Assembly: GCF_054482595.1 (NCBI RefSeq)
Contig: NZ_JBTHVH010000004.1
DNA: 64,000 bases
Reading direction: 5' to 3' (one strand)
Source: a plasmid
Positions 3,001 through 9,000 of this stretch are shown one piece after another. Position numbers: made by a program. Numbering within the stretch: the stretch's first letter is position 1; each line of letters begins with the position of its first letter.

Positions 3001-6000
3001 TACCGTAGAAGCTATACCGCAATACAGAATGATAGTGTTAAAAAAGCTGAAGCACGTAGCATGCAGCTGGAGGAGGAGGTAACGCAGCTGTTACAGCGGC
3101 TTGAGCAAAGCGCTACCGATATGGATGAGCTGAAACTTGAGAATCAGGCACTACAGGGTCGATTAGAGATCCGGGACAGTACCGTCAAGGAGTTAGAAAC
3201 AAGGCTGAATGTTGCCGAAGCAGAACTCGAAACCTGCCATCACCAGTTAGATAGCACACGGCATGAATTGAGCCTCGCACAGCAGTCAAATGACTCACTC
3301 TCCCAGCAACTGGCTGAACGTAAAACAGAGATCGCTGGTCACCTTGAATATCAAAAAAAGCTGAACGAAGAGATCAACACGCAGCGTTCTGATAACGCCG
3401 GTCTTTCCAGACAATGCGACCAGTTAAGTCAGACTGTGTCAGATACAAAGGCAGAGAGGGACAGGTTTGAACAGGAATTGATTGCTGCACAGAACCTTTG
3501 TACTGAGCTGAAAAGTGCACTGTCCGGGAAAGAGGGTGACCTGGTGGCGGTGAATGCCGAGCTTACTGAACTCCATAAACTAAACGAGTCGCTGAGCGCC
3601 GACCTGAATAAAGTAACTTTGGTCAGCCAGGGCTATGAAGCGGAAGTGGCTGAACAAAGCAATGAACTCAAAACGCTCCAGGCCAAAGTAATGAAGCTGG
3701 AAGCTACCCTGGAGGCGGAGAAAACAATCTCAGAATCCCTAAAAGGCACCATTGATACATTAACTGGTGCAATGGCAGGGGGAGGTACTGGAAAGTCAAA
3801 ACAGCCGCGTAGCAGAAAAACATCATGATAAATGAAGCCAGGTTGATACACTTCTCTGCATCCCCTGGCACATAAGAACTTCTGCGGACATTCAGCCCGT
3901 CCGCAGGAGTTTTCGTCCTTCAGTCAACAAATGCACTACCTTTTTTGAGTCTCCACTTTCCAGAGCAGAAAACACGTTACCGATTCTACCAACAGCTTGT
4001 ATCTGAGTGATAACCCCAGTCTTGTAATCATCTAGGATCCCTGACAGGAAAGCGTTCAGTTTTGTCTGTTCGCTTAGCGAAAGCATGTAGGACATTTTTT
4101 CTCCATTTTAAGCAGGTGTGTCAGTTGAAAGAGGTTTGCGTGATTCTGGAAAATGAGGCAGCACCATAGTTTCAGATGCTGTGGTCGCATCCCAGTGCCA
4201 CCATCCATAAGGCCCATATTCACGGTTGTAATAATCTTTTTTGAGTTGCTTTCGGGCCAGATAAGCAGGAGTGGCCATACCAAATACTTCCATCGGGAAC
4301 GGCTTATCGCTTTTTGTGTCGAGCAGGTAGAAGTCAGGGAACACCTCACTAATACTCGCATCATAACGCATGGGCTTAACGTACTGCCGGTGCTCTGCAT
4401 CCAGCTTTTCTGCAACAACCGCCTCATAGGAGGAGTCCAGAGGTATCCAGTTCTCGCTAACGTGCATCAGCACAATTTGATGAGCTCTTACAGAAGGGCC
4501 TCTGCCGGTTACCGCAGCTGGTGACGTCAACGCAAAGACAACTATTTTCGCCCCGGATTTCCATGCTGCGTACTCCGATGAAAATCGTTTCTTTACGCTA
4601 TCCCAATGGACTTCTGAATTGAAAAAAATCAGCGGTAGCCCCCCAAAATTCCGCAGGGGTAAAAATTTAAGTGGCTTCTCATGCTTTTCAGCATCGTAGC
4701 GAGGTAAAACTGACAGGAGCATGAGACGTTTATCACTCATCGCCTGTGATGAAAGACGCTGAATTTGCGACTGAGCGACAGGTTGTTTCGGGTCAGGTAC
4801 ACCAATGAATAAATGGTCACCTATGCAGGCTCTGCCGGTACGAATTTGTTTAGCGGTTTCAAGCAGACGATACCGTACCAGTGAATCGTTACGTTTCCCT
4901 GCCATTTTCGGGTACCAGACATTCAGACCAGACTCTGTCCACAAAAGACTAAGCAAGCCCAGGAGGGTCATTGAGGCCTGACCTCCTTCTGGTCGCTGAA
5001 CATGGGGCAGGGGAGGCACTTCTGATTTTTCAGGAGGATCTTTCTCTGTCATACCGATACCGAGCCTTACAGCCATATCACCTTCGGTTGTAATCCGGAC
5101 CACACCACTCGCATATCCTTTCAGGCCGGTATGCCGGGCATCAAGGGAGAAGAATACACAGGAAGGATCATGCTCAATGCCCGTGTTAGCGGCTTTGACG
5201 AGAATAAAGGCATCACCGTTCGGTAAAGCACGAACATAAAGTCGCTTTTCTCCTTTTCCACGACATCCGCAGGTGATGACTGATTTTTGACCTGAGGTGT
5301 GGTGTGCCTTTTTAAGAGCCGACTGCCACCCTTTAGCAAACTCATCCTGCGTTTGAAAGTCAGGTGAATACCTTTTGACGTTTGGATCGTCGTCGTAAGC
5401 AATCATCACTGCGAATTTTTGGCTCATAGTAGTCTCCTAAACAGGAAGTTTAATATCCCAACCAGAGCAACACTTCCTGAGCGTCATACTGTTCCTTTAC
5501 GCCCATGTCGCTAAAGAATTCTTCGAAATCTGTTTCGGGAACGCAATGCCTGGACAGTTCTTGTAATGCTCGTTCTTTAGATACCGTCTCACCTTCAGCT
5601 GATTCGAAATACGTCATGGTTGACCTCTGACATTATTACAACAATCTTAAGCATTTAAATTGATGAAGGAGCTCAGGTCAGCTGACTTCGTCGTAAAACT
5701 GCCGCAAGCGCTGGGAGGCTGCAAATTCAATTCGTGACTTCAGCAGTTTGGCGACGGCCGCAAAGACATCAACGACCACGGAGTTCCCAAACTGTCTGTA
5801 AGCCTGTGTATTGGACACAGGGATACGGAAAACACTTTCCCCGGGTTTATCGAAGCCCATTAGCCTGCTGCATTCACGTGGCGTTAGCATGCGTGGCCGA
5901 CGGTCCATGTTGTATGTGTTATGGAAATCAGTTTCTCCCAGTTCATGAGACCAGCCCCGATCAATAAGAATTTCAGATCCGTCTTTCATATAGCGGCTTG

Positions 6001-9000
6001 AGAGGGTTATGGTGACACTATTAACATTGGAAGGATCTACTAGTCCAAAACCAAAACCATTGCCTTTTGCCGCATGTTTCTTTGCATAGTTGTATAAGTA
6101 CTCCCAGAGTTTAGGGGAGAGGATGTATTTACTATCTACGCTCGGATCCAGTAAATCTGAGAGAGAAGGGCGCTTGTCCGGATAAAAGTCTTTAATGTCT
6201 CTCAGAGTAAAACCGTCTTTCAGACGTAGGTCGCGGCGAAAACCAATAAGGACGATACGTTCACGGTGCTGGGGTCGGAAATGACGGCCATCGATGACTT
6301 TAGGATCATCCGCGCCCGTGCTTTCGCTGTTTGCGACGTCGTAGCCAAGCTCATCGAGCGTTTTCATGATGATGTTAAAGGTATTACCCTTATCGTGACT
6401 CTTCAGATTTTTTACGTTTTCCAGAACAAAAATTGCAGGTTGTTTTGCCCGGATGATCCTGGCCACATCAAAGAAGAGCGTACCCTGAGTGTCGCACTCG
6501 AAACCGTGTTTGCGACCCATAGAGTTCTTTTTACTGACACCGGCGATGCTGAATGGCTGGCATGGAAATCCCGCAAGAAGAACATCATGATCCGGGATAG
6601 AGGCATCGATAAATTTGTATGCCTCGTCATCAGTAACCTCGGGCCGGTTGCTAAGAGTGATGTCACGGATGTCTGAATTGAAGCGGTGCTCGTTCTCATC
6701 GCAATACCAGTTCGCCCGGTAAGTACGGCTGGAATAAGTATTCCATTCGCTCGTGAAAAGACATTTACCACCGATGGCATCAAATCCGCTTCGCAGTCCA
6801 CCTATCCCTGCAAACAGATCGATAAAGCTAAAGTGCCTGTCCTCATAATCAGCAGGTCGTGAAGGTATTAAAGTCTGTAGATAGCGTCCATCTGCGATAC
6901 TCAGCTCACAATGCTCAGGTATGCATGTAACCTGACGTTTAAGGGATGCACGGGACCAATTACTGCCATTTTCATCATTTAATACCTGAGCCAGATATTT
7001 CAGGTCATAAATGGTCGAAGCTGTTAACAAAGTTTTGTGGATCAGAGATGGTGTTTTATCCACATCATTCAGGTCTGTCTCAAGATCATGAGTGTAACGT
7101 TTCATCCAAACTCTCTCAGGAATAATATCTTTGAGATAGATTAACACGCTTAATTTGGATTATTTTTTGGTTCAGGTTCTAAATTTATTGTGATTATTCT
7201 GCCTTTAAGTTGCAAAAAGATTGGTTTTAAGCCCGCCCATGAAATAATGACTTGTTAAAATACTGCCTGTAAATAGGCTTGTGGATACATGTCTGTACTC
7301 AACAAATCAAGGTGAAATGATGTTTTTTTTAACAAAGTTACTTTTGCCCATCATGATTGTTGTATTCCCAGTGGCGTCCTGGGGGAACTCAACAACTTTT
7401 GAGGCAAAGGTGGTTAAGATTGTTGACGGTGACACCATAACTGCGTTGGATGCTCAAAACACAACCATCAAAATACGGATGTATGGTATAGACGCTCCTG
7501 AATCTAAACAGGCTTTTGGCCAAAAAGCAAAACAGGCCTTAACCACAGCTATAGCAACTAAAATCGTTACCGTGATAGACCATGGTACGGATATCTATGG
7601 CCGTATGTTAGGTACCATCTGGTTAGATGGATATGATATCAATGCCTCTATGGTGGACAGTGGATATGCGTGGGTTTATCGGTTCGAAGATAACGCCATT
7701 GTCCCTGGCTATATCAAATATGAATCCGCAGCACAAAAGGAGGCAAAAGGGTTATGGGCAGACACCAACCCTGTCCCACCATGGCAGTGGAGACAGGCAA
7801 ACGAAAAGCCCAGAAAGGTGAAAGAGAAGAAATAACCATGATGAAAGAGCCTCATCCGTTACTTCAGTTGGTACTAAACGATTCCGGTCGTCTAACCATG
7901 CCTGTTTATTATAGAGATCAACAGTATTGCCCGACTTGCCTTACAAAGGTGTTGAAGAGTGAGGATGGAAGTTTGGCGCACCTCGGGGAAATAAATCAAA
8001 ATACATGTAGACCTTCTATTTCAGTAGTTGTGACAAAAGCAATTATTGAAATGTTATGTGACGGGGAAAAAATATATGTAAATCCAATACGACACCGAGG
8101 CCGGGTGCTGGCACCCTCAGTAATTTTTTCTCCCGACACTCACACTTTCAAACCGTTTATAAATACAGACTATCAGCCTGTGGGAGCAAACTGGAAAAGT
8201 GAAAAGGGATATAAACTCGGTCTGTTTTATCTCAAAGATCGAGCCAACTCTATCAATAAAGAGGAATTTGATTTCATTGCCGTTATAGACCCTGAGGCAA
8301 TGCAGAAAGAATTTATTTCGGCCTGGTCTGAGGTTGATGAAAAAAATCCATTGGAAACGCTGAAGCAGATCTTACGATCTAAAAACAACTCTTCTTTATG
8401 GGTAAAATGGCCTGGCAAAATTGAGCATGCGCAAAAAGGAAATTACAACGAAAATTACTGGTTCGATTATCAATCTGATAATCAGGAAGTGAACTGTACG
8501 GTCTCTGTTGTAGGTATCGAAGGTAACAGTTCCGGTGAGACAATTTATAGATTGCAAACTTTGCTAAAGCGTAAGCTCAATGAATATCAACTGGTTCGGT
8601 CTTTAGGGACTATTATGCTTCTTGATAATACCGGGAATATGATTCCATCAAACCATCCTTATTTTGAAGTCATCTCAAAAGCATGTATAAATGGAGTGCG
8701 TGACTTTGTTCGTCAAAACCCGTGGGTAGTCTGACGGTCAACTATAAAGCATAATATAATTAGTAATAACAAGGAACAGACATGAATGAAAACTCAGTAA
8801 TCTTAATAAGTTTATTTTGGTTTTTTTTGGGATCGAGTGTTGTAGCTGGTTTTATGGATGCATCATTATATTGCTGGATTTTTGCAGCCATAAGCGCATT
8901 GTTTCTTCTTTCGGTGATACAAACACCAAAGGAGTTAACGGTATCTATTAGTCATATGACAAGCAAAACGCTGATCTCAAAGACAGATGATGGATACACA

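Follow-up and report, generated by a model that had tools for sequence, protein, structure and literature searches.

Introduction

A plasmid-borne gene for a Dcm-type DNA cytosine-5 methyltransferase raises the question of what such an enzyme does on a plasmid, and whether the genes that follow it depend on the methylation that it performs. The case considered here lies in a 64,000-nt stretch of plasmid DNA (NCBI RefSeq assembly GCF_054482595.1, contig NZ_JBTHVH010000004.1), hereafter the window, in which dcm is followed on the same strand by three genes: orf55, a gene of the DUF1173 family and orf67. A first-pass annotation of this DNA, made from the sequence alone, had placed the methylase at the head of a four-gene operon with three uncharacterised proteins and had proposed a methylation-dependent module that could be restriction-like, an epigenetic switch or an anti-restriction device. 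The analysis described below leads to another reading, in which dcm is an orphan protective methylase in the IncHI plasmid backbone and is co-expressed with establishment genes that act independently of methylation; we give this reading an even chance of being correct. The locus seems to be neither a restriction-modification system nor an epigenetic switch, both of which are unlikely, so that among the three functions first suggested only anti-restriction survives, and it does so for the methylase itself.

The four-gene cluster

All four minus-strand open reading frames (ORFs) were found where they had first been placed, at 5678..7147, 5450..5617, 4108..5427 and 3892..4095, with intervals of 60 bp between dcm and orf55, 22 bp between orf55 and DUF1173 and 12 bp between DUF1173 and orf67, and with the Shine-Dalgarno motifs AGAGG, AGGAG and GGAG located 5' of the frames of 55, 439 and 67 amino acids. 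With the start of dcm revised as explained below, the genes of the cluster are as follows.

5678..7105, minus strand: dcm, a DNA cytosine-5 methyltransferase of the Dcm subfamily, 475 amino acids (RefSeq WP_000833382.1; NF007772; TIGR00675)
5450..5617, minus strand: orf55, a small acidic protein (RefSeq WP_000220758.1; PHROG 25588)
4108..5427, minus strand: DUF1173 family protein, 439 amino acids, with an N-terminal CxC...H...C zinc motif, a middle region and a PD-(D/E)XK-like C-terminal domain
3892..4095, minus strand: orf67, a small protein of close IncHI1/IncHI2-like relatives only, with kept length and under purifying selection

Although the dcm frame can be read back to the GTG at 7147, where the gene was first thought to begin, the ATG at 7105 is most likely the true start, which is the one used in RefSeq (475 amino acids) and is preceded by GAGAG 7–13 nt upstream; the extent of the ORF stands and its proposed start is the less likely one. 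RefSeq names the first three genes 'DNA cytosine methyltransferase', 'hypothetical protein' and 'DUF1173 family protein'. The 55-residue gene, which had been reported as absent from the ORF track and found by hand translation, is real but was already present in RefSeq, and it also matches a phage protein family. The 67-residue ORF is unannotated in the IncHI2 RefSeq records examined, and is annotated in an IncHI1B plasmid (WP_000323423.1) and in some NCBI entries.

The methylase

The methylase is a genuine Dcm paralogue that belongs to the Dcm subfamily. It scores 841.4 bits against the NCBIfam model NF007772 (PRK10458), for which the cut-off is 710, over profile positions 14–468 of 472, it is also matched by TIGR00675, and among the PADLOC models 'orphan methyltransferase' fits it best. 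Comparison with the chromosomal Dcm of E. coli gives 65% identity and 78% similarity, in an alignment that runs without gaps over 438 amino acids, including the target-recognition region, and in which the motifs of the C5 class are all found, namely FxGxG for binding of S-adenosylmethionine, the PCQ with the catalytic cysteine, ENV and the C-terminal GNS (FGNSV). Since this identity extends gap-free through the target-recognition region, the most probable target of the plasmid enzyme is CCWGG, the site that both chromosomal Dcm and M.EcoRII modify. The initial description of a Dcm-type methylase heading a tight same-strand cluster is thus borne out.

The comparison with the E. coli dcm–vsr locus and with M.EcoRII of the IncN plasmid N3 reveals a clear paralogy of the methylases, with all C5 motifs and equal length, and a difference in what accompanies them. 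Whereas on the E. coli chromosome vsr overlaps the end of dcm, the plasmid cluster contains no overlapping vsr, and whereas M.EcoRII has an EcoRII-type endonuclease as its partner, plasmid dcm is followed instead by orf55 and DUF1173, which match neither. Neither Vsr nor a recognisable restriction enzyme was found among the downstream proteins in searches with NCBIfam and PADLOC and in direct comparisons with Vsr, as the first-pass annotation had anticipated, and none of the three downstream proteins has a match in NCBIfam.

CCWGG sites are only three in the 3.3 kb of the four-gene cluster, and none occurs in the intergenic region between dcm and the neighbouring thermonuclease (SNase) gene (7105–7320) or in the 60 bp that separate dcm from orf55. 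The absence of CCWGG from the dcm promoter region argues against a promoter that senses methylation. In the window as a whole, CCWGG occurs 143 times, compared with 107 ± 10 in dinucleotide-preserving shuffles, and none of 100 shuffles reaches 143; thus, the Dcm/EcoRII site is not avoided in the window.

The methylase and DUF1173 are linked only in the IncHI lineage

The first-pass annotation had named a survey of DUF1173 homologues as the observation on which its proposal turned: homologues occurring mostly without an adjacent methyltransferase would speak against it. This is what was found. The survey covered 80 DUF1173 loci with 8-kb flanks from 80 species genomes, obtained by a genome scan from a 12-sequence alignment, and all ORFs of these loci were searched with plasmid Dcm, a screen that addresses the C5 class only. 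A C5-methylase lay within 8 kb of DUF1173 in just one of these 80 loci from other species. Methylases of any class were absent from the annotated DUF1173 contexts of P. aeruginosa, Massilia, P. syringae, Acinetobacter and Sphingomonas and, more generally, from seven of the eight non-IncHI contexts annotated with Pfam or by the depositor. An Agrobacterium plasmid carries a large methylase-helicase 1.5 kb from DUF1173 on the opposite strand, a type of gene seen in one locus of the 80. In Klebsiella IncHI1B/IncFIB plasmids, whose DUF1173 protein is 42% identical, the gene stands directly opposite the SNase gene, and both dcm and orf55 are missing. By contrast, the order dcm–orf55–DUF1173 is kept in IncHI-like plasmids in which DUF1173 is 81%, 61% and 52% identical. 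The link between dcm and DUF1173 is confined to the IncHI1/IncHI2-like lineage.

Natural variants that have lost dcm point in the same direction. In a Salmonella IncHI2 plasmid, a 62-bp insertion follows codon 167 of dcm and DUF1173 is intact; in three more IncHI2 plasmids, IS100, IS1203 or ISEc8 lies inside dcm and both orf55 and DUF1173 are unchanged. A contig of Photorhabdus tasmaniensis (positions 5137–5669) encodes a Dcm from which residues 144–437 have been deleted, so that the catalytic core is lost and residues 16–143 and 438–475 are left, and orf55, DUF1173, orf67, the adjacent coiled-coil gene, the DUF4942 gene and the SNase gene are all intact on it. DUF1173 is apparently tolerated without dcm in these five natural variants. 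The rarity of C5-methylases beside DUF1173, the intact DUF1173 of the dcm-null plasmids and the promoter region devoid of CCWGG together leave the methylation-dependent module unsupported. As a separate observation, dcm appears to be a recurrent target of disruption, and other top matches carry IS21/ISEc62, IS3 or IS66 in the same 3.9 kb, which could reflect either a cost of the extra Dcm or a hot spot for insertion.

The genes that do surround DUF1173 identify it as a gene of conjugative elements, both plasmids and integrative and conjugative elements from many phyla, in which it sits amid genes for transfer, partition and establishment. In nine of the 80 loci, the gene directly upstream of DUF1173 encodes a type IV coupling protein, in two types that belong to two unrelated lineages, and a tyrosine recombinase occupies the upstream position in other loci of the set. 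SNase homologues occur within 8 kb in 18 of the 80 and also accompany DUF1173 in Klebsiella, Acinetobacter and Sphingomonas plasmids. In Pseudomonas, ParB-like genes adjoin it. In Sphingomonas, it is accompanied by ssb, SNase and DUF736 together with genes for a pentapeptide-repeat protein and an SOS-response-associated peptidase (SRAP), in Agrobacterium by DUF932, ParB and a toprim gene, and in Klebsiella by PsiA, H-NS and a PLD-type nuclease. In the P. syringae plasmid pUR_B4A, DUF1173 is flanked by the genes for a resolvase and for the replication initiator, with parAB upstream of it, and in an Acinetobacter plasmid it comes just after rep and a zeta-toxin-like gene. When the neighbouring ORFs were clustered without bias, spurious frames from the high-GC sphingomonad loci dominated the result, and the recurrent neighbours were rechecked with NCBIfam.

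Two further features of these loci deserve mention. The genes tightly coupled upstream of DUF1173 differ among lineages, with a zeta-toxin-like P-loop protein in Acinetobacter (plasmid locus at 5861–8224) and a conserved protein of 251–256 amino acids without family match in Pseudomonas, and may be lineage-specific partners of DUF1173. Moreover, DUF1173 is annotated in two pieces, apparently through a frameshift, in many large IncHI1B/IncFIB-type plasmids of Klebsiella (and E. coli); as these Klebsiella plasmids are maintained, the gene seems to be dispensable for keeping them.

DUF1173: family, fold and conserved residues

The 439-residue protein, initially described as uncharacterised, belongs to a known family and is no orphan. 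It matches Pfam DUF1173 (PF06666) with E 5.7e-39 over residues 26–393 and is a full-length member of this family, which comprises 1,170 clusters at 50% identity, nearly all with a single architecture of about 400–440 residues. DUF1173 is present in 3,316 of 72,556 plasmids (about 4.6%), and 73% of the carriers are typed as conjugative.

Laganeckas et al. (2010; PMC3045609) predicted for DUF1173 a CxC...H...C zinc motif and a C-terminal PD-(D/E)XK-like domain, tied the family by profile comparisons to the nuclease-fold families DUF1064 and DUF790, and found no active-site signature conserved across the whole family. The IncHI protein shares both the zinc motif and the nuclease-like C-terminal domain but, in contrast to the family at large, the branch formed with its closest relatives does keep a set of acidic residues together with K351 and K396. 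Among the 162 closest relatives, the zinc ligands C53, C55, H86 and C90 are kept in 161–162, and E335, K351, D365, D370, E380 and K396 are each conserved in 150–159. P364–D365 and E380 are kept in 150, and the third position of the motif is F, Y or W, and not K. Thus, the acidic motif reads P-D...E-V-F and lacks the canonical lysine of (D/E)xK, for which K351 or K396 might substitute. The conservation of the acidic residues suggests that this branch of DUF1173 may be catalytically active.

A profile search and a structural comparison of this protein had been recommended in order to look for a nuclease, ATPase or DNA-binding fold, and they returned a weak nuclease-like resemblance without a significant structural match. 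The alignment-based AlphaFold2 model is confident (pLDDT 88.8, pTM 0.89), and a single-sequence model (pLDDT 32.8) was not used. Beyond the zinc motif, the protein weakly resembles an OB-like region and a nuclease fold of the Vsr/TnsA kind. Foldseek found nothing below E 0.05 in the PDB and only other DUF1173 proteins in AFDB50, and a profile search of PDB sequences with DUF1173 gave no match. The comparison by hhalign of the family profile with single Vsr and TnsA sequences was not significant, with a probability of 0.7% for E. coli Vsr, against which BLASTP returned E 28. PADLOC yielded no full-length match and one weak match of residues 317–403 to the candidate defence protein PDC-S68 (E 8e-5).

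The small proteins orf55 and orf67

Both small ORFs keep their frame and length in relatives whose DUF1173 proteins are about 80% identical, and in these relatives non-synonymous divergence (pN) is far below synonymous divergence (pS), with pN 0.21–0.35 and pS 0.65–0.92 for orf55 and pN 0.21–0.24 and pS 0.71–0.76 for orf67, which indicates that both are real genes under purifying selection. Neither orf55 nor orf67 has a match in Pfam, NCBIfam or PADLOC.

For orf55, a link to phages was found. The protein matches PHROG 25588, whose function is unannotated, with E 1.8e-24, and full-length homologues with 51–55% identity were detected by tblastn in 35 phage genomes. In Pectobacterium phage Nobby, the homologue is gp02 (796..954), the first forward gene at the left end, and in Escherichia phage PGT2 it is also gp02 (1699..1857). 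The homologues are the first or second left-end gene in two genera of Autographiviridae, Phimunavirus and Ermolevavirus, and the left end of the genome in this family is the early region. Further homologues on metagenomic contigs adjoin umuDC, DUF3560 or HigB genes, and both dcm and DUF1173 are missing from their vicinity. Judged by these sequence relationships, orf55 belongs to a small mobile-element gene family common to plasmids and phages. Its phage homologues share position, small size and acidity with T7 gene 0.3 (Ocr) and other T7-like early left-end genes; however, orf55 has no sequence similarity to Ocr, ArdA, KlcA/ArdB or other known anti-restriction proteins, and the analogy with Ocr is one of position alone.

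The distribution of orf67 is narrower. It has the same length of 67 codons and the same position in an IncHI1B plasmid and in the Photorhabdus element, with 60–70% amino acid identity; only close homologues were found, and the gene is absent or replaced in relatives with 61% and 52% identity of DUF1173. On two metagenomic contigs, an orf55 homologue comes after a 67-residue ORF, which proved to be unrelated to orf67.

Transcription signals

Co-transcription of the four genes is plausible from their arrangement, and a scan for terminators found no strong one between them. Three signals were noted in and around the cluster.

7244..7273, minus strand: promoter-like site 5' of dcm, in the divergent intergenic region common with the SNase gene (consensus scan)
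5632..5659, minus strand: possible internal promoter in the 60-bp dcm–orf55 gap (TTTAAA, 16-nt spacer, AATAAT, extended -10 TG)
3877..3911, minus strand: terminator-like hairpin over the orf67 stop codon (terminator scan and inverted repeat)

The site upstream of dcm (7273..7244) matches the consensus at 9 of 12 positions, but promoter-like sites are not more numerous in the region than in shuffled sequence and, since their count is not above chance, it can only be regarded as a candidate. The intact state of orf55 and DUF1173 in plasmids in which insertion sequence (IS) elements interrupt dcm fits a separate promoter in the 60-bp gap. The hairpin at 3877–3911 has nine pairs, six of them G–C, with a weak T tail, and the inverted repeat has 13-nt arms that are 92% complementary; it is the probable end of the transcription unit. 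A search of positions 1–14000 with Rfam gave no RNA family.

The IncHI backbone and the flanking genes

The four-gene cluster sits in the conserved backbone of IncHI1/IncHI2-type conjugative plasmids. Its 3.9-kb region has matches in 1,210 plasmids, of which 1,129 reach at least 99% identity. Most of these plasmids are typed as conjugative, and they come from several genera, among them Escherichia, Salmonella, Enterobacter, Klebsiella and Citrobacter; the plasmid records with the region that were examined are typed as IncHI2A with a MOBH relaxase. The window agrees with the reference IncHI2 plasmid R478 at 99.4% identity over positions 3612–8949 and is collinear with the E. coli plasmid pMCR1-PA over positions 539–14037. 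On either side of the cluster lie two pairs of genes.

7320..8734, plus strand: thermonuclease (SNase) gene and then a 298-residue gene, divergent from dcm (RefSeq annotation; NCBIfam nuclease matches)
1808..3828, plus strand: DUF4942 (YdiA-like methyltransferase-domain) gene and SMC-like coiled-coil gene, convergent with the cluster (PF13708; SMC models)

The block kept in IncHI-like plasmids consists of the SNase gene and a gene for about 300 amino acids, divergent from dcm, a gene for about 58 amino acids and DUF1173, followed by the convergent coiled-coil gene and DUF4942. As the flanking genes are conserved too, the block has the appearance of inherited backbone synteny.

The DUF4942 protein matches Pfam PF13708 with E 3.3e-26, and the coiled-coil protein matches SMC models; the DUF4942 gene overlaps the start of the SMC-like gene by 4 bp, and the pair adjoins the cluster in all IncHI-like relatives. 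Homologues of DUF4942 also occur near DUF1173 in Klebsiella grimontii and in P. putida pKF715A. Next to this pair, R478 has an inserted Tn7-like element of 33 kb that contains sil and pco, for resistance to silver and copper (R478 114139–147196), located between a 381-nt hypothetical gene and DUF4942 (window ~1165–1808). The window has no such element, and this junction is thus an insertion site in the IncHI2 backbone. At the other side, the backbone ends at about 12.5 kb and a mosaic resistance region extends from there to 64000; a truncated TnAs1 transposase occupies 12521–14035, the collinearity with pMCR1-PA stops at 14037, and a floR-containing segment at 32133–35946 matches pMCR1-PA again. 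Literature searches returned nothing about what this operon does in IncHI plasmids; the one use of 'dcm' that they brought up was as a map landmark (PMC9599605).

How the cluster might work

Orphan methylases are a prominent leading-region function of conjugative plasmids (Samuel et al. 2024, PMC11541004), and the IncHI locus resembles the anti-defence islands described in that work in that it combines an orphan methylase with small genes, a DUF4942/YdiA gene and nucleases. The DUF4942/YdiA family is listed in the supplement of that study among the families enriched in leading regions, DUF1173, orf55 and orf67 are not among the enriched families of its supplementary tables, and in other plasmids DUF1173 adjoins ssb, PsiA, ParB-like and DUF932 genes. 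If dcm is an orphan protective methylase, the plasmid Dcm would pre-protect both the plasmid DNA and the DNA of the new host from EcoRII-type restriction, and orf55, DUF1173 and orf67 would be transcribed together with dcm or from a second promoter just after it, without any need for methylation. The product of orf55, as a member of a family found at the start of the T7-like early region, would likely be a host-takeover or anti-defence factor, DUF1173 would probably bind or cut plasmid DNA during entry or establishment, and orf67 may be an accessory protein or a regulator of DUF1173. We infer these biochemical roles of orf55, DUF1173 and orf67 from the relationships described above.

Several observations weigh against this reading. 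The orf55 protein matches no known anti-defence family in PADLOC or Pfam, and dcm and orf55 are tightly spaced in relatives, with a 4-bp overlap in one (L093) and a 12-bp gap in another (L091), which could reflect a functional link within the IncHI lineage. Four of the five dcm-null variants occur in E. coli or Salmonella, hosts whose own chromosomal Dcm could substitute for that of the plasmid. Moreover, in R478 a distance of about 39 kb separates the cluster (149.5–152.5 kb) from mobI and the gene for the MobH relaxase (191–195 kb), on the side away from the relaxase, and the Tra1 genes are located between the cluster and the likely oriT, for which a position upstream of mobI is assumed from the arrangement in SXT and IncC elements; with this distance and these intervening genes, the locus does not look like a textbook leading region. 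Unlike leading-region islands (PMC11541004), the window yielded no promoter active on single-stranded DNA, no ssb and no psiB.

Among the other explanations, the most serious is that the adjacency is incidental and that DUF1173 is a plasmid maintenance enzyme, for instance a nuclease of replication intermediates or a protein for recombination or multimer resolution, without a role in establishment or anti-defence, which in IncHI plasmids would simply be on one transcript with an orphan methylase. The placement of the gene near the replication and partition genes of pUR_B4A, its position after rep in Acinetobacter and the published ties of the family to DUF1064 and DUF790 agree with this possibility; however, other lineages place DUF1173 after the coupling protein or amid establishment genes such as ssb, PsiA and DUF932, and its frequent frameshifts in Klebsiella plasmids that nevertheless persist are difficult to reconcile with it, so we consider it unlikely, if worth keeping in view. 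It is less probable that the three genes after dcm make up a plasmid-borne system for defence or exclusion, in which DUF1173 would be the nuclease effector against incoming DNA of phages or rival plasmids, under the control of orf55 and orf67. The partial PDC-S68 match, the D365/E380 pair that most relatives conserve along with K351 and K396, and a Hachiman system located 5 kb from DUF1173 in one Sphingomonas plasmid could be read in this way, but no PADLOC model matches DUF1173 over its full length, orf55 and orf67 are missing from nearly all DUF1173 loci, and the usual neighbours of the gene are those of transfer and establishment and not defence islands; such a system therefore seems improbable.

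The explanations that bind DUF1173 to methylation are weaker still. DUF1173 could replace Vsr and nick the T:G mismatches that arise by deamination of 5-methylcytosine at the sites of plasmid Dcm, but neither alignment of the protein to Vsr reached significance, the gene almost never adjoins a cytosine methylase and it is kept where dcm has been lost, all of which makes this role very improbable. A new Type II restriction-modification system, with Dcm guarding CCWGG and DUF1173 as its cognate endonuclease, would account for the placement of a gene for a nuclease-like protein behind a methylase gene in the same orientation, in an order kept across IncHI-like plasmids. Nevertheless, C5-methylases are absent from 79 of the 80 loci from other species, and in most annotated contexts methylases of every class are missing, the five independent dcm-null variants retain DUF1173, including the Photorhabdus element with its deleted catalytic core, and the lysine of the canonical motif is missing where E-V-F is read, and we regard such a system as slightly less credible even than a substitute for Vsr. 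The least credible is an epigenetic switch, in which methylation by Dcm of its own or of target promoters would control the downstream genes: gene order alone speaks for it, and the scarcity of CCWGG in the cluster, with none in the promoter region or in the 60-bp gap, speaks against it.

The interpretation of dcm as a protective methylase beside establishment genes can also be taken further, in a form that we hold to be doubtful, if somewhat less so than a maintenance role for DUF1173. In this extended form, DUF1173, aided in IncHI plasmids by orf55 and orf67, would be an unrecognised establishment or anti-defence nuclease of conjugative elements, including many integrative and conjugative elements, which would act on the incoming strand or on the defences of the host in the first minutes after transfer, and orf55 would be a new small inhibitor common to plasmids and to the earliest genes of T7-like phages.

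Significance

The locus has been sequenced and annotated more than 1,000 times and fits the pattern of an orphan methylase accompanied by establishment genes, so the surprise that it offers is small; what is newly noted is the link of orf55 to phage early genes. DUF1173 is among the commoner plasmid families without an assigned function, and the survey portrays it as a gene of conjugative elements that is not tied to methylation and has a plausible acidic site in most relatives. Among the major vehicles of mcr-1, mcr-9, CTX-M and further resistance genes are the IncHI2 plasmids, whose conserved backbone includes the cluster. Thus, if the methylase, orf55 and DUF1173 aid the survival of these plasmids on entry into a new cell, they would affect the host range of the plasmids and might be possible targets for blocking their spread.

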